Source: Dictyostelium discoideum
Lineage: Eukaryota
Direction: 5' to 3'
DNA length: 64,000 nucleotides
Assembly: GCA_000004695.1 (NCBI GenBank)
Contig: CM000152.2
Coordinates: 3,040,001 to 3,104,000, forward strand
Positions 1 to 62,956 of the stretch are shown one piece after another. Each line of letters begins with the position of its first letter. Positions within the stretch are counted from its first letter, which is position 1. The position numbers and the translations under genes are program-made. The notes under the pieces were generated by a model. It was not told the DNA's origin. It made no database searches and worked only from the letters and a program-made list of their open reading frames with translations.

Positions 1-1
1 A

Positions 2-1507
<1,506 letters not shown>

Positions 1508-1997
1508 AAAAATAAAAAAAAAACTACCAAAACAATAAAAATAGTTTTTTTAAAAAAAGAATTAAAAAAATTAAAAAAAAAAAAATAGAATTAAGAATAT
1601 TATTAAAATAATTTGTTCATCTAATTTTCTTTTATAATAGATTTTGTTTTTTTTTTTTATGGTTCAAATTAATTTAGAAAGATTTTTTCAAAAATTTTTT
1701 TTTTTGGCTTGAACCATTTTTTTTATTTTAAAGAATTCAACATTTTTTTTCTTTTTTTTTTTTCTTTTTTTTATTGATGGCTTTAAAATAAGAAAAGATT
1801 AGAAAAAGATGGTTTTTTTTAGAAATTTACAAAGAAATAGAGTATTGTAGAGTTTTTTGGGTTTTATTAATTTTGTTTTTTTTTGATTTTTTTGATTTTT
1901 TTTTTTTTTTGTTTAAAAAGGTTCTTTTTAAATTTTAAAATTCATTTTTATTCTTGTAGACTTTATTTTTATTGAAATAGTATTTAAAAAAAAAAAA

Positions 1998-4830
1998 ATG
2001 AAAGAAAAAATTAAATTAAGTTTATTAATTTTAACCTCAATTATTTTGGCTGTAGCCAATTCTCAAACACAACCAAGTAATTATCTTTAAAATTAATTTT
2101 ACATTTTAATTTAAATAAAAAAATATTAATATAAATAAAATTAATAATAATAATAGAAACTTTGGCAATGACAGCTACTGTTTATGACCAACATACATTT
2201 TACAACGACAATTTTGAGAACCAAGGACCGGCTTATTTAACGAAAAACATGGTTGTTAGTAAACTTGATAAAACTTTAAAGATTCCACAATTAGTGAGCT
2301 TAGATATTAATGTGGAAGGAAAAACTGGTGTAAATTATTTTGGAACAATGTATAATCCAAAACTCTTTAAATATTTTTTCTCAGAAAATACAAATGCTTC
2401 TCCAGATGATAAAAACTCTGGTAAAAACTTTCCATTATTGATGGATTTAATTCTTACATTAAATGAAACAAGTGGAGCTTATGAATTCTCTAAACAAGGT
2501 AATTTTTTAAAATTATTATTATTTCATTTTTTAAAAAAATAATAAAATGAAAAATAAAGTTATTTACCAACAGTAATATCCTATAAAATTAAAAAAAGAA
2601 TACTTTCCAATTAATGGTAAAGGATTTAATGATCCATCATACAAAGTACCACCAAAATATAAAGCAGATTCTCCAAATGTGGATTGGTTTAAAATGGCTG
2701 GCGGAGGATATTCTCAAAACAATTATAATTATTGTATTAAGGTAATTAATTAAATTAATAAACAATTAAAAAAATTTTAAATTATTAACTCTTGTTTTAT
2801 TTTGGGAAATGCATTAAAATAAAAAAATAAAAAAAATAAAAAAAAAAAGTTAAATTCCAAATTCACATATTTCAACAAAGGTGAAGTATTTAATTTTAGA
2901 GGTGATGATGATGTATGGGTATTTATAGATAATAGACTTGTTGTTGATTTAGGTGGTTTACATACAGCTGAAACCGCAAATATTAAATTGAAGGATATTA
3001 CAAATCCCCCATTACAAACTAATAAAATCTACGATTTAGATTTCTTTTATTGTGAAAGAAGAGCAACTGGATCATCAATTCAACTATCCACAACTCTCGA
3101 AATTTTCTGTGTAGATGATTATTGTGGTAAGTTTTTTTTTTAATTTTAGAATATTATAAATACATATATTAATTATATAATATAATGATGTGTATTTTAA
3201 CTTTTTTTTTTTAATATTTTTTTTTTTTTTTAAAAAAAATTATTTATTTAAGGTGTTTGTAATGGTGATGGTACAAGTTGTTGTACTTCATCAACTTGTG
3301 AAGATAATAATGCATGTACAATTGATAAGTAAGTGTTTTATAATAAATTGAAAACTTTAATTGGAAAAAATTATTAATATTTGATTATTATAAAGGTGTC
3401 CAAAACTTGGATCAGTTGCACCAGGAAAATTCACAAAGGATGACTGTGTATATTCAGAGGTCGTTTGCCCAATTGAATCTAACCAATGCTTAAGACCATA
3501 TTGTGATCCAAAAGAAGGTTGTAAAACTTCACCAGTTGAATGTGTAAATGGTAATATTGATAAATGTTTTGAACAATTCGGTAGTTGTGACTCTTCTCTA
3601 GGTTGTCAATATAATTATAAATGTAATGCCTATGGTAAATGTAATTTGGGATGTAGTGGTGGTCAATGTAAAGTTAAAACCTCAGAACAATGTTCAGAAG
3701 AATTTGGAAATGATCCATGTTACACTTACAGTTGTGACGTAGAACTTGGTTGTGTGAGAACTGAAAAATGTTCACAAGAAGATGCCAAACTATGTACCAT
3801 CAATACTTGCTTAAAAAATGTAACAAGAGAAGATGATAGATGCGAACTTGTAAGTATTCAAGAAGAATGTAATTGTTGCGCAGGTCATACAGTTGATCCT
3901 TGCCAATTGCCAGGTTGTGGTGAACCAGGTGAATGTAAACCAGTTGATAAAATCATTGATGATAATAATTTATGTACAATTGATAAATGTGAAAATGGTA
4001 CAATTACACATACTCCTGTAAAATGTGGTGGTTGTTCAATATGTGATTCGAAAACAGGTCAATGTGTTATAAATCCACCCATCTGTGATGATGATAATGT
4101 TTGCACAATTGATACATGTTCACTTGTTGAAAATCCAAATGGCTCCATCGATGGTGTATGTTCTAATAAAATTTTTGATTGTGCTTCAAATGATACTGAT
4201 TTATGTAATATTTGGACATGTGATGCAAATAATGGTGGTTGTCAATCGATAAAAAAGGTTTGTGATGATCCTTCTCCATGTCTTGTAAGTAAATGCGAAC
4301 CATCAACTGGTCAATGTGTGGACAGTCCAAGAACATGTGATCATGGTGGTGCTTTTTGTTTAATTTCAGAGTGTGATGAAAGACTTGGTTGTATCGTTTA
4401 CAATAGACAATGTGCATCTGATAATAGAAAATGTCAAGCTGGTGTTTGTGTTAATGGCACTAGCTCTGAGGAAGGTCATTGTACATCTGTAGACTATGAT
4501 CCATTACCATTTGGTTGTAATACGGCTGCTGTTGTTTCAACTGCTGTTATTGCTGGTGTTACTGTTGCTGCTGTTGTTGGTCTTGGTATTTTCCTTGTAA
4601 GTCTTTCACAAACTCTTTTATTTTATTTATTTATTTTTTTTTTTTTAAACATTGAATTGATTTTATACTAACATTAATTTATTATTTATCAACAGTATGG
4701 AGGTAAAAAAGGTTATGATTATTATCAAGATAATAAAAGTAAAGGAATGACTGGTGCAAATTCAAACCCATTATATAAGGAATCAGGTAATGCTGGGCAA
4801 AATCCATTATATAATGATAATAATTTATAA
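1998..4830 (+). CDS. Psi-like secreted/type-I membrane protein: signal peptide, PA14/fibro-slime domain, Dicty-CTDC Cys-rich repeats, one TM helix, short cytoplasmic tail. Seven exons: 1998-2076, 2157-2498, 2599-2741, 2851-3126, 3253-3328, 3396-4596, 4696-4830.
   Basis: Exon 1 (MKEKIKLSLLILTSIILAVANSQTQP) is a signal peptide. Exons 2-4 encode TVYDQH.FYN.NFE ... YFPINGKGFND ... GEVFNFRGDDDVWVFIDNRLVVDLGGLH ... DFFYCERR, the PA14/fibro-slime signature. Exons 5-6 encode many C..D.N.CT.D.C repeats and the TM helix AVVSTAVIAGVTVAAVVGLGIFL. The last exon encodes YGGKKGYDYYQDNKSKGMTGANSNPLYKESGNAGQNPLYNDNNL*. All junctions use GTAAGT/GTAATT donors and AG acceptors in consistent phase. The exon layout is identical to the paralog at 6316-9419. 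Confidence 0.8.
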
Positions 4831-5169
4831 AAAATAAATTCGGTTTTATATTAGTGATTAATAATTTATAAATTTTTATCATTATATAATGGATTTTATT
4901 TAGATTAAAATTTTCATATTAAAATTTTTTTTTTTGACATTTTGTTTTGGTTTGACACTTGGTTTGACAATTAGGTGTAATATGGATGTTTTTGGTTGTT
5001 TTAAAAAAAAAAAAAATGGCTTTTTTTGAAAAAAAAAAAAGTTTAAAAAAATAAAAAACTCTAAAAAAATGTTTTCAAAAGAAGAAAAAGGTGTAATAAT
5101 ATTTAAATTTATTAATTTATTTTTTTTTTTTTTTTTTTTAAGAAAACTATAAATTAACAATTTTTTGTG

Positions 5170-5293
5170 GAAATTATAATATTATTTTATGTATAATAAT
5201 TTTATCCAAAATTGTTTTGGCCAATGCACAATCTCCACCAAGTAATTATCTTTCAATAAATTTTTAAATATTAAATAAACTAAATAATATTAA

Positions 5294-5337
<44 letters not shown>

Positions 5338-5500
5338 TAATAGAAAATTTGAATATGAGGGTTACTGTTTATGACCAACATTTCTTTTATAATAACAATT
5401 TTGAAACAGTAGGAGTTGCTTATGTGACTAAGGGCTTAACAATAACGATGAATATAATAATATAATTGATATTGTTATATTACAAAATCCATTATATAAC
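5170..5500 (+). pseudogene. Degenerate fragment of a psi-like PA14 gene: signal-peptide-like exon without an ATG, plus the start of the PA14 exon, truncated by a stop
   Basis: The sequence ...IILCIIILSKIVLANAQSPPSNYL has no in-frame ATG. After an intron-like AT stretch it continues ENLNMRVTVYDQHFFYNNNFETVGVAYVTKGLTITMNIII* and then AT-rich sequence with no further exons. It lies between the two intact paralogs in the same orientation. Confidence 0.5.
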
Positions 5501-6315
5501 AATATCAAGGTATAAAATTATATTTCTTTTAAAAAAAAAAAATGAAAAAAAAAAATTTTAAAAAATATATAATTTTACATAAATTAATTTTTTATAAATA
5601 TTATTATTATCAATTATAATAATATTATAAAAATAAACTTTTTTAAAATAAAAAAAAAAAATAAAAAATTAAAAAAAAAATAAACAAATAAAAAAAAAAA
5701 TTTTATTTTTAAACTAATTATTATTTTATTTATAAAACTAACTAAAAAAAAAAAAAAAAAAAAATTTGGAAGATATAAAGAAAAAATAAAGAAATATAGA
5801 AAATAAAAAAAAATAATATTAAATAAAACTAAAATTTAAGCACTATTAAAAAATTATATTGGAAATAGTAATAAAATTGAGAAAAATATTGATTTTTAAA
5901 TTTTTTTTTTGTCCAACCCAATTTTTTTGATCATCATGATTATTTTAAAAATCATTGAAAAAAAAAAAATAAATAAAAATACATGAAGTTTCTGCCCCCT
6001 ATTTTTTTTTTTGTGTGTGTCACTAAGTTTAAACACAGTTTTTTTTTATTTTTCACTTTTTTTTGCGGATCTTTTGTTTTTCAAATAAATAAATCAAAAA
6101 AAAAAAGATATTTTTAATCTCAAAAAATTGTAACAAATTTCTCAAGAGTTAATTTTGAAAAAAAAAAAAAAAAAAAAAATTAACAAAGCGTAAAAAAAAA
6201 AAAAAAAACCATTACCATTATTTTACCACTCATCAAAAAACAACAAATAAAAAATAAGAAAGTCTAAAATATTAAAAGAATAAAAAAAATATATACAATA
6301 AAATAAAAAAACAAA

Positions 6316-6446
6316 ATGTTCATTCAAAGAACATTTTTAAAAGTTCTTACTCTTTTGAGTATAGTAACAGTTTTGGTCCATGGACAAACTCAACCAAAAG
6401 GTAAGCCATAAAAAAAAAATTAAATAAAAATAGAAAAATAAAAAAA

Positions 6447-6487
<41 letters not shown>

Positions 6488-6579
6488 AATAAATAAATAA
6501 ATTTAAATGAAGAAAATCTTTTAAATTTTTATATAAATAAATTTAATTTTTATAAATAATAAGAAATTAATAAAATTAA

Positions 6580-6616
<37 letters not shown>

Positions 6617-6956
6617 TAAAATTACATTGAAGGCCGTAATTTATGATCAACACAAGTTTTATAATCCAAATTTCCAACCAAAAAATGAGGGAGAATTTGT
6701 TTTAACTAAGGGAATTGTCAAATCAGATATTGATCAAGAAAAAAGAATTCCAGTTTTAAATAGTATGGATGCCAATGATTCTATAAATAAAAAGGCAAGA
6801 ATTAGTTGGCCAGATGGTTTTAAGTATTTTTTTGTAGATAACCAAGCTGGTGATTCAAAATCTGCCAAATCTGGTAAAAATCTTCCAATTCAAAGAGATA
6901 TCGAGTTAAATTGGAATGGAGAAGCATATGAATATAGTAATTCAAGTGAGTATTTG

Positions 6957-6996
<40 letters not shown>

Positions 6997-7046
6997 AAAT
7001 TTAATATTAAAATAGTTTCTAATTAAAAATTTTATTTTTATTTTTT

Positions 7047-7079
<33 letters not shown>

Positions 7080-7637
7080 ATTTGTGTAATTAAGATTACT
7101 TCCCAATTAACGGACAAGGTTTCAATGATGTAAGCTATCCAGTTCCAAGAGGTTATGTACCAATTTCTGGAGAATCCTGGACATCAATGTCAACTTCAAC
7201 TTCATTAAAGGGTAATAACTATAATTTTTGTTTAAAAGTAAGTTTTAGTTTTTATTTTATTTTATTTTTATAATTTTCCTCTCCACATATTAATATTTTT
7301 TATTATAATTATTTTTATTATTTTTAAAATAATTTCTTTTAAAATAGTTAAACTCTAAATTTACATACAACGGAAACGAAGTCTTTAAATTCACTGGTGA
7401 TGATGATGTATGGGTATATATTAATAATAAGTTGGTTGTTGATATTGGTGGTATCCATTCACAAGTAAGTGCTTCAGTAGATGTTACTAAACTTGGTCTC
7501 ACTGTAGGAACCATTTATAACTTTGATTTCTTTTATTGTGAAAGAAAAACAAGTGAGTCTAATATCAAAATTCAAACAACAATTGAAACTTATTGTGCCT
7601 ATGTTGATTACTGTGGTGGTAAGTTTTATTTTTATTT

Positions 7638-7687
<50 letters not shown>

Positions 7688-7867
7688 AAATTTATCATTT
7701 AAATTAACTTATTATTATTATTATCATTTGAAATTATTATAATTATTATATATAGTTTGTGAAGGAGATGGTTCAACATGTTGCAATCCAGCTACTACTT
7801 GTAATGATGGTAAAAGATGTACTAATGATTTGTAAGTATTTTATTTTTTTTTTTAAAAAAAAATTTC

Positions 7868-7903
<36 letters not shown>

Positions 7904-9419
7904 AATTTACCAATCAAATTTACTAATATTATAAAACTTAATAGTTGTCCAGATCCAAAATCCCCATTAGCTGGAAAAGATATTAGCAAATATTGTGACC
8001 ATATTCCAGTTAAAACTTGCTCAAGTAAAGATACATTATGTAAACAATATACTTGTAGTGATGATCTTAAAGGTGATATGTGTGTTATCAAAAATACTGT
8101 CACCTGCCCAGGCAATCAAACAAACTGTGAAGCCTCTGGTTATTGTGATGATAAATTTGGTTGTATTAATCCATCAAAATGTACAGATTACATTGGTCAA
8201 TGCTTTTCTGGTAAATGTGTAAATGGTGAATGTGCAAAGGTTACAGCAGACGATTGCGAAAAAATAATTGGAGGTGTATGTAGATCAGACTATGTTTGTG
8301 AACCAGGTCTCGGCTGCAAATCATCAGAGAGATGTAGACAAGGTAGTGATATTTGTGATCTTGTAACTTGTGATCCAAAAGCAACTGACGAATCAAAGAG
8401 ATGTATTACCACTGTTTTAACTGACGAAGAATGTAGATGTTGTGAATATGATACATTGAGATTCTGTGAACAAGCTGCATGTAGTAATAAAACCGGTCTT
8501 TGTCAACCAATTCCAAAGAATGTAGATGATGGTAATTTATGTACAATCGACGCCTGTAATGAAGATGAAAAAACCATCACCCACGTTCAAGTTACATGTG
8601 GTGGTTGTGAAACCTGTTCATACGCTACCGGTAAATGTGAACCAGATAGTTCACTTTGTAATGATAACAATATTTGTACCATTGATATTTGTGTCCATGA
8701 AGGTATTCTCGATGGTCTACCACAAGGTAATTGTTCAAATACTCCAGTTGATTGTGGTGCCAATGATGAAGATAAATGTAAAACTTGGTCTTGTGATCCA
8801 ACTAAAGGTGGCTGTCAATCAACCCCAGTCGTTTGTGAAGATAAAGGTAAATGTTTAGTTGGTACTTGTCAACCATCCACTGGTCAATGTGAATACTCTG
8901 ATAGAGTTTGTGATAATGGTGGTGCTTTCTGTGTTATTGGCCAATGTGATCAAAGACTTGGTTGTTTAGTTTTCGATAGAGTTTGTTCATCTGATAATAG
9001 TAGATGTGAAGAAGGTGTTTGTGTAAATGGTACTGAATCTGAAGAAGGTCATTGTAAATCTGTTAAATATGACCCATTACCATTCAATTGTAATACTGGT
9101 GCTGTTGTTTCAACTGCTGTTATTGCTGGTTCTACTGTCGCTGGTGCTGTTGCTCTTGGTATTTTCCTTGTAAGTTTTTTTTTTTTTTTTTTTTAATAAT
9201 AATTATACACACACACACAATTTGTATTAAAACTAATTTTTTTTTTTTTTCCAAAATTTATTTTATTCTTATAAATAGTATGGTGGTAAAAAAGGTTATG
9301 ACTATTGGAAAGACTCAAGAAATATTTCAATGGGCTCATCAAATAGTAATCCATTGTATGAAGAACAACAAACTGGAAGAGGTGTCAACCCAATGTATGA
9401 CGATCCAGCTGCTAATTAA
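6316..9419 (+). CDS. Second psi-like PA14 + CTDC-repeat + TM protein, tandem paralog of 1998-4830. Seven exons: 6316-6400, 6616-6945, 7095-7237, 7348-7618, 7756-7831, 7945-9169, 9279-9419.
   Basis: Signal peptide MFIQRTFLKVLTLLSIVTVLVHGQTQPK. PA14 motifs AVIYDQHKFYNPNF, YFPINGQGFND, GDDDVWVYINNKLVVDIGGIHSQ, DFFYCERK. Long C..D.N.CT.D.C repeat region. TM helix AVVSTAVIAGSTVAGAVALGIFL. Tail YGGKKGYDYWKDSRNISMGSSNSNPLYEEQQTGRGVNPMYDDPAAN*. Confidence 0.8.
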
Positions 9420-9431
9420 ACAAATTAAACA

Positions 9432-9467
<36 letters not shown>

Positions 9468-9931
9468 AATATTTGTATTATTTATTATCAATTTTTTTTT
9501 GGATTTTTTTTTTTCTTGTATATATATTAAAAAAAAAAAAACAATTATCTATTTATCTTTCCGCTCAATAAAATAAAATTAAATAATATTATTATATTCA
9601 TTTAAATTTAGATTTTTTTATTTTTATTTTTTTCAAAAATTAAAATTGTATATATATATCTATTTTTGGTGTAATTATTTCCAAAAAAAATTAATAATGA
9701 TTTTTTTTTTTTTTTGTTTTTTTGTTTTTTTTTTTTTTTTTTTTAAATGAAAATATATTCAAATCGAAAGATGTTCTAAAAAATTTTTATTAAAATTTGG
9801 AAATATTAATATTAAGATGACATAATTTTGATGGTGTTTCGTTTTATTTATTTTTTTTATTTTTTTTATTTTTTATTTTTGTTTTTTTTTATTTTTTAAA
9901 AAAAAAAAAAAATAAAAAAAAAAATAAAATT

Positions 9932-9973
<42 letters not shown>

Positions 9974-10098
9974 TGTACAATAATCGAACAATATTAGATA
10001 TTTTTTTTTATTTAATATAAAAAAAAGTATTTGTGTAAATAAATAAATAAATTATAAATCAATAAAACAAAAAAAAAACAATATATACAAAATAATAA

Positions 10099-10441
10099 AT
10101 GTCAATTTCAGGTGTCGTAAAATTGGGAAAGCCTTCAAAAAAGGCAATTTTTTCAATGGTAAGCGAATTCTTTGAAATTTTTTTAATTATTATAAAAAAA
10201 CAAAAAATAAAAAAATAAAAAAAAAGTATGAAATACTAATTTAAAAATTATAGACAGACTCTGCATTAAAAAGAGTGAAAGAGATTATGAATGATAAGAA
10301 AATAGATAATTGTATTGGTCTTAGATTAGGTATTAAAGAAAGAGGTTGCTCTGGTATGTCATACACCTTAGACTTTGCAACTCAAAAGAATAAATTTGAT
10401 GAAACTGTTGTTGCTGACAAAGGTAATTAACACAAAATAAA

Positions 10442-10528
<87 letters not shown>

Positions 10529-10794
10529 GTAATAATAGTAATATTAACAATATATTTATATTTATAATGATAATAATAAATAATAATAATAATATAATAA
10601 TAGATATCAATATTATAGTAGATTCAAAAGCATTATTATCAGTTATAGGTACAGAGATGGATTACATTGAAGAACCAATTAAAAAAGAATTTATATTTAT
10701 TAATCCAAATGCAACAAATACATGTGGTTGTGGAGAATCCTTTACCACTAAAGATTTTTCAATACCTGACTTAAAACTACCAAAAAAGAATTAA
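10099..10794 (+). CDS. Iron-sulfur cluster assembly A-type carrier (IscA/HesB family), probably mitochondrial. Three exons: 10099-10158, 10254-10422, 10604-10794.
   Basis: After splicing: MSISGVVKLGKPSKKAIFSM|TDSALKRVKEIMNDKKIDNCIGLRLGIKERGCSGMSYTLDFATQKNKFDETVVADKG|DINIIVDSKALLSVIGTEMDYIEEPIKKEFIFINPNATNTCGCGESF... This carries the HesB signature, including the conserved C-G-C-G-[ES]-F motif and the upstream GCSG Cys. Intron 2 carries an (AAT)n microsatellite at 10441-10537. Confidence 0.85.
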
Positions 10795-20636: not shown

Positions 20637-20678
20637 ATCAAAAATGCCTGGATGGCTCAGTAGGCAGAGCGAGCGGCT
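20637..20678 (+). repeat. Copy 2 of the 42-bp direct repeat. It continues into the intact tRNA-Asn gene.
   Basis: atcaaaaat + GCCTGGATGGCTCAGTAGGCAGAGCGAGCGGCT. See 19757-19798. Confidence 0.8.
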
Positions 20679-20718
20679 GTTAACCGCTAGGTCCATGGTT
20701 CGATCCCATGTCTAGGCG
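20646..20718 (+). tRNA. tRNA-Asn (anticodon GUU)
   Basis: The 73-nt cloverleaf folds by hand. Acceptor stem GCCTGGA / TCTAGGC, with one G-U pair. D arm GCTC-AGTAGGCA-GAGC with A-box TGGCTCAGTAGG. Anticodon stem AGCGG/CCGCT and loop CTGTTAA, giving anticodon GTT. T arm CATGG-TTCGATC-CCATG with B-box GGTTCGATCC. Discriminator G. Confidence 0.9.
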
Positions 20719-20750
20719 AAAATTTTGAAGCTCGAAAAAAATAAATCACA

Positions 20751-62883: not shown

Positions 62884-62956
62884 CACCCATTGTGGGTCTC
62901 GATCCCACGACCTGCAGCTTAGAAGGCTGCCGCAATTCCAACTTTGCTAAACGGGC
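62884..62956 (-). tRNA. tRNA-Arg (anticodon UCU), possibly a variant or weakly functional copy
   Basis: Reverse complement GCCCGTTTAGCAAAGTTGGAATTGCGGCAGCCTTCTAAGCTGCAGGTCGTGGGATCGAGACCCACAATGGGTG folds as a cloverleaf. D arm GCAA/TTGC. Anticodon stem GCAGC/GCTGC with loop CTTCTAA, giving anticodon TCT. T arm GTGGG-ATCGAGA-CCCAC, with A at position 54. The acceptor stem has two G-U pairs, including 1-72. Confidence 0.7.

Follow-up and report, generated by a model that had tools for sequence, protein, structure and literature searches.

Remains of a third tandem paralogue between psiO and psiP in Dictyostelium discoideum AX4, and the mosaic evolution of this paralogue and psiO

In this study, we analysed a 64,000-nucleotide stretch of the Dictyostelium discoideum AX4 genome (NCBI GenBank assembly GCA_000004695.1, contig CM000152.2, positions 3,040,001 to 3,104,000 of the forward strand; hereafter the window, numbered from its first letter) that carries two tandem genes of the psi family, psiO and psiP, with a fragment of a related gene between them. 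We conclude that the region consists of the annotated psiO-psiP pair and the remains of a third tandem paralogue, referred to here as the middle gene, which is intact in other isolates of the discoideum clade. Taken together with the history of the locus described below and the receptor-type function that its proteins would have, we give this interpretation a probability of about 0.8.

Results

The fragment between psiO and psiP is an internally deleted gene

The fragment can be divided into the following parts (L001 and the other L numbers denote psi loci of the genomes listed further below).

5167-5515, + strand: unprocessed, internally deleted pseudogene, orthologous to the middle gene that other discoideum-clade isolates keep intact, by colinearity with L001
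5167-5241, + strand: remnant exon 1, in which the former ATG is now GTG (5167-5169) and is followed directly by two insertions of 1 base pair (bp), by alignment with L001
5242-5343, + strand: remnant intron 1, retained, GTAATT...ATAG, by alignment with the intron of the intact gene
5344-5437, + strand: first 94 nucleotides of remnant exon 2, ..NLNMRVTVYDQHFFYNNNFETVGVAYVTKGL, ending at the left deletion breakpoint
5438-5481, + strand: 44-nucleotide filler at the deletion junction, which brings an in-frame stop (5463-5465) into the exon 2 frame and has no counterpart in intact loci
5466-5508, no strand: inverted repeat with arms at 5466-5480 and 5494-5508 and a 13-nucleotide loop
5483-5515, + strand: last 10 codons (QNPLYNNIKV) and stop codon, including the second NPxY motif of the deleted gene

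AX4 and L001 are colinear on either side of the fragment, with window positions 1-5437 corresponding to L001 680-6262 and window positions 5482-10540 to L001 8735-13606. Approximately 2,472 bp of the middle gene are missing from AX4, between breakpoints at 5437 and 5482. The 5' remnant is 94.5% identical to the middle genes of L001 and L006 (FIW_M and FIR_M) and 75% identical to AX4 psiO; it is, therefore, the orthologue of the middle gene and not a partial copy of psiO. The 3' remnant lies in a different frame from the exon 2 part, and the intact product of L001 (P0004) ends in ...QNPFYNNIKV. Since the last 10 codons and the stop codon are kept, the element is an internally deleted gene rather than a copy of two exons, and the retained intron 1 rules out a retrocopy. 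An assembly artefact was also considered and rejected, as the independent long-read assembly L002 shows the same junction. The kept intron, the colinear flanks, the change of ATG to GTG, the deletion of 2.47 kilobases (kb) and the in-frame stop together mark the element as an unprocessed pseudogene. A first-pass annotation of this DNA, made from the letters alone, had described a fragment of a dead psi family member that lacks a start codon and is cut by a stop codon, and alignment and translation agree with it on each of these points; it had limited the fragment to the first two exons, and the 3' remnant was overlooked.

Part of the filler (5466-5480) repeats 5494-5508 perfectly in inverted orientation. 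In direct orientation, 5437-5463 copies 5497-5523 at 78% identity, a similarity that could arise by chance in AT-rich DNA. The repeat at 5466-5508 is the sole perfect short-loop inverted repeat of at least 15 nucleotides with non-trivial arms in the window, and the intact loci L001 and L006 contain its downstream arm only. We infer that the filler and the inverted repeat were left by template-switch repair when the deletion occurred. The remnant is thus like other internal-deletion pseudogenes with templated insertions in its kept intron, its colinear flanks and a filler drawn from adjacent DNA and partly inverted, and unlike them in how far the direct-copy filler departs from its presumed template.

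Two other accounts of the fragment were weighed. It is very unlikely that the remnant is still alive, either supplying psiP with an alternative 5' exon or an upstream transcript from its promoter and exon 1, or yielding a regulatory RNA. The upstream intergenic region, exon 1 and the GT...AG intron 1 are preserved, and the remnant lies approximately 800 bp upstream of psiP on the same strand, yet its start codon is gone and its frame is broken, no protein model is recorded from it, and psiP starts from an ATG and signal peptide of its own and keeps its 7 exons in all genomes, with or without the middle gene. Barely credible is a partial duplication in which only the 5' end of a psi gene (promoter, exon 1, intron 1 and the start of exon 2) was ever copied and then decayed, for although AX4 on its own shows recognisable similarity mainly to exons 1 and 2, the element ends with the final codons and stop of its parent gene, three other genomes carry an intact 2.8-kb gene with which both of its flanks are colinear, it is far closer to that gene than to psiO, and a repair filler sits at the junction.

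psiO and psiP are named members of the psi family

To model the two genes, every GT donor and AG acceptor close to an apparent exon border was enumerated and an open frame was required. This left two open models for the first gene and three for the second, which differ only in the exon 4 donor, that is, in which GT is used within the ...TGTGGTAAGT... run; picking the canonical GTAAGT donor gave a single model for each.

1998-4830, + strand: psiO (gene 1), 7 exons, 750 amino acids, by splice enumeration and translation; exons 1998-2076, 2157-2498, 2599-2741, 2850-3126, 3253-3328, 3396-4596 and 4696-4830
6316-9419, + strand: psiP (gene 2), 7 exons, 756 amino acids, by splice enumeration and translation; exons 6316-6400, 6616-6945, 7095-7237, 7348-7618, 7756-7831, 7945-9169 and 9279-9419

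The translations are exact matches to "Protein psiO" (PSIO_DICDI, Q54VS4, XP_641281) and "Protein psiP" (PSIP_DICDI, Q54VS2, XP_641283) of D. discoideum AX4, and therefore the gene models are right. Intron phases are 1,1,0,1,2,0 in both genes, exon 3 (143 nucleotides) and exon 5 (76 nucleotides) are of equal length in the two, and the proteins are 46% identical. psiK (E = 4e-147) and psiA (E = 2e-50, 37% identity, 50% query coverage, 557 amino acids) are homologous to psiO. The coordinates, the exon count and the identical phases given in the first-pass annotation were all reproduced by splice enumeration, and its assignment to the PA14/psi family is borne out by the exact matches and by the homology to psiA. 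The genes are not new, since both are already known and named in databases, with names based on homology alone.

No further pieces of the PA14/psi family were found elsewhere in the window. The region is very AT-rich, with a GC content of 10-20% between genes and 25-37% in exons, and its introns are short and of the GT-AG type, as expected for a dictyostelid. Intron 1 of psiP contains an (ATAA)~24 microsatellite (6408-6502), and intron 6 a (CA)6 run (9218-9229) that is unusual in DNA so rich in AT. The GenBank accessions of psiO (EAL67310) and psiP (EAL67312) are two apart, which implies an earlier protein model, EAL67311, between or close to the two genes. A look-up of psiP by its exact sequence, aimed at the AX4 reference annotation of the interval, gave no record. 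Exact look-up of three ATG-initiated open reading frames (ORFs) of the spacer (27, 36 and 44 amino acids, out of six of at least 20 amino acids) returned no match. A literature search for psiO and psiP, in which the query words were swamped by water-potential symbols, found no paper studying either gene.

The middle gene is intact in some genomes and has been lost twice

The best match to psiO outside AX4 was in another D. discoideum assembly, where the neighbouring locus tag led to P0004, the middle-gene product of L001 (740 amino acids, 82% identical to psiO). The state of the middle gene in each genome is as follows.

Window, D. discoideum AX4: middle gene deleted
L002, D. discoideum, chromosome-scale assembly, 99.6% identical to AX4 over 10.9 kb: same deletion
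L001 and L006, D. discoideum: middle gene intact, 740 amino acids
L003, D. cf. discoideum: middle gene intact, 745 amino acids
L005, D. cf. discoideum: middle gene broken by a 1-bp deletion in exon 4 and a deletion of approximately 375 bp
L004, D. citrinum: two tandem copies, with psiP elsewhere on the contig

In L001, L006 and L003 the tandem order is psiO, middle gene, psiP, all three intact, and the 17 genes modelled from six genomes all have 7 exons with phases 1,1,0,1,2,0. L002 has the same 1.48-kb psiO-psiP spacer as AX4, with no gene called within it. Ten assemblies built from Nanopore and Illumina reads, including one of the laboratory strain AX2-214, have been described (PMC12745789); given its near-identity to AX4, L002 is presumably AX2-214, and AX2 presumably shares the AX4 deletion. 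That study, which does not mention psi or PA14 genes, places isolates CR116C and OT3A, which form macrocysts with AX2, provisionally in D. discoideum, regards M4B and S6B as possible cryptic sister species, and includes three isolates of D. citrinum (PMC12745789).

The larger deletion in L005 removes the end of the stalk, the transmembrane (TM) segment, intron 6, exon 7 and the stop codon, and its breakpoints differ from those of AX4. The middle gene has, therefore, been inactivated twice and independently, once in the AX4/AX2 lineage and once in L005. In D. citrinum (L004; GCA_054859325.1, 3402-10131) two psiO-type paralogues lie side by side and are followed by an ELMO_CED12 gene in place of psiP, the orthologue of which is approximately 22 locus tags away (ACTFIV_010166, compared with 010143 and 010144). 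The array is thus rearranged relative to that of the discoideum clade.

Exons of the housekeeping genes that flank the locus show a silent divergence (dS, synonymous substitutions per site) of 0.10-0.18 between AX4 and each of L001, L003, L005 and L006. Values of this size are far above the level expected within a species. These isolates are therefore deeply diverged from AX4, and the psi locus does not stand out in its silent divergence; exceptional polymorphism here was considered and rejected, as the flanking genes show the same dS. The flank divergence of isolates labelled D. discoideum fits the discussion of cryptic species in PMC12745789.

The stalk is homogenised within genomes while the outer head stays distinct

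The clearest signal in the comparison of these genes is one of concerted evolution: gene conversion homogenises the stalk between psiO and the middle gene, while exons 1-3 stay distinct. Within a genome, stalk dS between psiO and the middle gene is 0.025 (L003, FIZ), 0.09 (L001, FIW) or 0.10 (D. citrinum), compared with approximately 0.24 between orthologues of different genomes, and it is 0.44-0.96 in the N-terminal part of the same within-genome pairs. Sliding windows and per-segment neighbour-joining trees place the switch in grouping near residue 185, the boundary of exons 3 and 4; in the trees, exons 1-3 group by orthology and exons 5-6 by genome. Because exons 1-3 group in this manner, with copy 2 of D. 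citrinum inside the psiO clade, the duplication that gave rise to psiO and the middle gene predates the split of D. discoideum and D. citrinum. A later insertion or duplication as the origin of the intact CR116C/OT3A gene was rejected, since its exons 1-3 do not nest inside the psiO clade.

The ratio of nonsynonymous (dN) to synonymous divergence (omega) was calculated for each segment by the Nei-Gojobori method.

Exons 1-3: omega 0.36-0.73 between orthologues, 0.26-0.73 over all pairs
PA14 core (exon 4): omega 0.07-0.42
Stalk: omega 0.11-0.57
TM segment and tail: omega 0.03-0.31 among psiO and psiP orthologues, up to 0.66 in pairs with the middle gene or of psiO with psiP

Exons 1-3 have the highest dN and omega of any segment, and the TM segment and tail have the lowest dN among psiO and psiP orthologues (0.006-0.013). 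The tail of the middle gene has an omega of 0.4-0.5, above that of psiO, and this, together with the repeated loss of the gene, fits relaxed constraint. The first-pass annotation had proposed a gene cluster evolving by birth and death, with diversifying ligand recognition in the ectodomain. Birth and death suits an old duplication followed by two independent inactivations, though conversion of the stalk had escaped notice; diversifying selection is not demonstrated, as no segment of any pair reaches an omega of 1 when dN/dS is computed by segment, a check of the kind that had been suggested. With silent divergence equal to that of the flanking genes, the locus also does not behave as that of a polymorphic recognition receptor.

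psiO and psiP are predicted single-pass membrane proteins with a PA14 head, a cysteine-rich stalk and a two-NPxY tail

The protein segments map to the window as follows, the coordinates of the TM and tail segments being derived from the exon models.

1998-2741, + strand: psiO exons 1-3, signal peptide and fast-evolving N-terminal half of the head, residues 1-188 (hydropathy, dN and omega, trees, AlphaFold2)
2850-3126, + strand: psiO exon 4, conserved PA14/fibro-slime core with the invariant GDDDVWV motif
3253-4527, + strand: psiO exons 5-6 (3253-3328 and 3396-4527), Cys-rich CTDC-like stalk, with intron 5 (3329-3395) inside
4528-4830, + strand: psiO TM helix, spanning the junction of exons 6 and 7, and cytoplasmic tail
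7348-7618, + strand: psiP exon 4, PA14/fibro-slime core (PA14 51.7 bits, TIGR02148 135.1 bits)
9098-9419, + strand: psiP TM helix and cytoplasmic tail

Both proteins score above the cut-offs for PA14 (Pfam PF07691, cut-off 24 bits), with 33.5 bits for psiO and 51.7 for psiP, and for the fibro-slime domain (NCBIfam TIGR02148, cut-off 45 bits), with 114.9 for psiO, 135.1 for psiP and 115.9 for the intact middle gene. By hydropathy alone, Kyte-Doolittle peaks occur only at residues 5-23 and 680-709 of psiO and at residues 2-21 and 687-712 of psiP. Both are thus predicted to be type-I single-pass membrane proteins with a signal peptide and one C-terminal TM helix, a layout already proposed in the first reading of this DNA and one on which the domain scores and hydropathy agree. 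The CTDC stalk, proposed at the same time, is visible as a pattern of approximately 60 Cys (60 within psiO residues 281-690) at near-equal spacing in psiO and psiP, with recurring units of approximately 24 amino acids and CTIDxC motifs; the Dicty_CTDC scores (Pfam PF00526, cut-off 27 bits) fall just short at 25.7 bits (E = 1e-5) for psiO and 21.2 bits (E = 2.5e-4) for psiP, and precomputed annotations give PF00526 for the psi family marked as "faint".

Conservation was assessed across 40 full-length relatives sampled from all dictyostelid groups. Cys residues are conserved in at least 90% of these relatives at 61 of the 64 Cys positions of psiO, and 38 of the 40 keep both NPxY motifs in the tail (NPLY at 730 and 742 in psiO; NPLY at 734 and NPMY at 747 in psiP). 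The consensus of the C-terminal module in this set is ...C-x-TAAVVSTAVIAGV-x-VAGAVALG...GGKKGYDYWK...NPLY...NPLY. Between psiO and psiP, conservation is 97% for stalk Cys, 37% for the remaining stalk residues, 86% for the TM segment and 45% for the whole tail. A conserved Cys framework in an otherwise diverged ectodomain, as had been described from the letters, is therefore borne out, and the claim of a conserved tail is so in part: the GGKKGYDYW...NPxY...NPxY motif set is kept, in a tail of which just 45% is identical.

A profile of the TM/tail module matched 519 cluster representatives at E of at most 0.001 and 144 at E of at most 1e-10. Among ten longer matches that were scanned, seven had PA14 (five of them with above-threshold CTDC as well), one had CTDC only and two had no domain. 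A search of a set of 5.8 billion proteins with the 84-residue TM and tail segment gave one uninformative match, the query being too short for a database of that size. In one protein, P0151 (1506 amino acids), a complete GH63 glycosidase follows the PA14 head and the TM/tail module (residues 648-703); this protein most likely represents two adjacent genes merged by gene prediction rather than a true fusion.

The head of psiO (residues 22-290) was modelled with AlphaFold2 from an alignment with 29 relatives. The model is of high confidence (predicted local distance difference test, pLDDT, 89.6; predicted template modelling score, pTM, 0.89) and shows a single folded domain that takes in the part encoded by exons 1-3 and has the PA14 beta-sandwich fold. 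GDDD is invariant in all 30 aligned sequences and lines up with the DD in the canonical PA14 signature. This DD makes up the Ca2+ and sugar site of Flo, Epa and MpIBP, lectins in which Ca2+-dependent sugar binding uses the DcisD motif and a second loop. Sugar binding by psi heads is, therefore, plausible.

Other features of the window

Trinucleotide arrays, which match each other by BLAST, flank the psi cluster: a perfect (AAT)54 at 1208-1369 and (TAA)~54 at 10443-10602. The former lies inside the 3' end of the ORF region of the upstream gene (ORF 1046-1507) and may encode a poly-Asn tract. Two tRNA genes are also present.

20645-20719, + strand: tRNA-Asn(GTT)
62884-62956, - strand: tRNA-Arg(TCT)

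Discussion

The ancestral array comprised psiO, the middle gene and psiP, with the middle gene the sister of psiO. In the lineage of AX4 and AX2, approximately 2.47 kb was lost, from codon 55 in exon 2 to 33 nucleotides before the end of the stop codon; the gap was closed by 44 nucleotides that were probably drawn from the 3' sequence beside it, some of them inverted, and the ATG was also mutated. One isolate labelled "cf. discoideum" lost the middle gene in a separate event. Where both copies survive, conversion holds the region from exon 4 to the end of the stalk near-identical within a genome and leaves exons 1-3, the outer half of the head, distinct.

The protein itself is predicted to be a type-I surface glycoprotein with a PA14 lectin-like head of approximately 260 amino acids, bearing the invariant GDDD, on a disulphide-rich stalk of approximately 400 amino acids. 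A Gly/Ala-rich TM helix would then lead to a short tail whose two NPxY motifs are suited to an adaptor of the PTB/FERM type or to endocytic sorting, and the ectodomain may be shed as a signal, as for PsiA and DicA1. This architecture, the conservation of the TM segment and tail, and published precedents together support a surface receptor or adhesin with a glycan-type ligand and an NPxY-binding adaptor, and the most likely role, by analogy, is in glycan-dependent adhesion or recognition at the cell surface. That the proteins are primarily receptors or adhesins is a tentative assignment, which we rate somewhat below an even chance; a role primarily as shed signals is less probable, and what is left falls to matrix or other roles.

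Known proteins provide partial precedents for each part. In the psi family of Dictyostelium, activity is known only for PsiA, PsiF and PsiN (PMC4931340). PsiA is prespore-inducing and PsiF/DicA1 belongs to the discoidin-inducing complex; the family shares with psiO and psiP the PA14/fibro-slime head and the CTDC-like region. psiA is shorter and aligns to half of psiO, whereas psiO and psiP have a TM helix and an NPxY tail, and the third paralogue is unnamed and has no functional copy in AX4. The carbohydrate-binding PA14 domains compared with the head were those of the adhesins Flo5, Epa6 and Cea1A, the RTX-adhesin PA14 of Marinomonas/Lap, and RsgI3. About half of the 269-residue psi head superposes on them, at sequence identities of 10-17%, and the psi anchor is a TM helix where theirs is a glycosylphosphatidylinositol or cell-wall anchor or type I secretion. 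The integrin-beta-like SibA-E resemble psiO and psiP in type-I topology, a Gly-rich TM segment and a short two-NPxY tail, and in SibA it is the membrane-proximal of the two motifs that binds talin A (PMC9197732, PMC12686525). Their ectodomains differ, with a VWA domain and bacterial-type repeats rather than PA14 and a Cys stalk, and the tails share motifs only, homology not being demonstrated by the tail searches. TraA of Myxococcus xanthus, also a social, aggregating soil microbe, has a PA14-like head, Cys-rich repeats and a C-terminal membrane anchor, and its authors themselves point out the likeness to PsiA and DicA1 (PMC3325183). TraA has a bacterial outer-membrane sorting tag in place of a TM helix and cytoplasmic tail, and it is a polymorphic recognition receptor, while omega in the psi genes is below 1 overall.

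Several observations weigh against the interpretation that we favour. Solved PA14 domains superpose on only approximately 130 of the 269 residues of the head, and therefore the remainder, much of which is encoded by exons 1-3, is a family-specific addition; a head profile run against PDB sequences gave a marginal match to RsgI3 alone (E ~1). NPxY is a short motif, and no VWA domain or visible Sib-type protein was seen among the ten long tail-profile matches scanned. Binding of Ca2+ and sugar, binding of talin, and shedding are all argued from resemblance to other proteins. The names and accessions of psiO and psiP do not appear in the accessible part of the supplements of a 2026 life-cycle proteome, in which PsiA, C, D, H, I, K, M and R were detected. 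As regards the history of the locus, the assignment of assemblies to strains was made from labels and PMC12745789, and the 1-bp frameshift of L005 could be an assembly error, unlike its 375-bp deletion.

The strongest competitor to a receptor or adhesin, though less likely than not, is that psiO and psiP are mainly precursors of diffusible signals of the psi-factor or DIC type, anchored only for delivery before shedding. PsiA and DicA1/PsiF, the members whose roles are known, are signals that are secreted or exposed (PMC4931340, PMC3325183, PMC6830349), and ectodomain shedding from a single-pass protein is documented in Dictyostelium for DPF (PMC6889452). Set against this, conservation of the protein is highest in its TM segment and NPxY tail, with the very low orthologue dN given above and motifs found in all dictyostelid groups, which argues for a cell-autonomous cytoplasmic function; moreover, psiA matches only half of psiO.

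Less probable, and in our view unlikely, is that the head is under diversifying selection for self/non-self or ligand specificity, as in TgrB1/C1 or Myxococcus TraA. In favour of this idea, exons 1-3 evolve fastest and escape gene conversion, TraA has the same combination of PA14 and Cys repeats (PMC3325183), and residues 53-97 gave ratios of nonsynonymous to synonymous proportions (pN/pS) of 1.13, 1.76 and 1.24 in three comparisons. This is the sole window to reach 1, and the values are raw and rest on 45 codons only. No whole segment exceeds an omega of 1, the psi locus and the housekeeping genes beside it are equally diverged at silent sites and thus give no sign of ancient balanced alleles, and the repeated loss of the middle gene and the omega of its tail look more like relaxed constraint. 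A joint version is a longer shot again. In it, conversion would hold the stalk, TM segment and tail in common between psiO and the middle gene, and exons 1-3, which encode the outer half of the PA14 head and include a replacement hotspot at residues 53-97, would be shielded from conversion and diversify. If true, it would mean lineage-specific specificities for glycans or partners, and the recognition repertoire of a strain would change whenever whole paralogues were gained or lost, as in the NC4 laboratory lineage. The GGKKGYDYW-NPxY-NPxY tail would, in that case, define a second, Sib-independent family of adhesion receptors in Amoebozoa, coupled to talin or another adaptor.

Altogether, the additions made here to what is known of the psiO-psiP locus are modest (a lost paralogue, a second loss, a repair scar and mosaic evolution) and do not overturn current understanding. 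The two genes were already catalogued; what is added is that AX4, and presumably AX2, are without a functional third paralogue found in other discoideum-clade isolates, and a catalogue of the psi family taken from AX4 is therefore missing one member. For evolution, the locus is a compact case of mosaic concerted evolution, with the stalk homogenised and the head distinct, that also shows repeated, independent loss of a single copy and a probable template-switch scar at a deletion junction. For cell biology, our data raise the hypothesis that some of the approximately 20 psi/PA14 proteins may serve as adaptor-linked receptors for adhesion or uptake, and not just as secreted signals.

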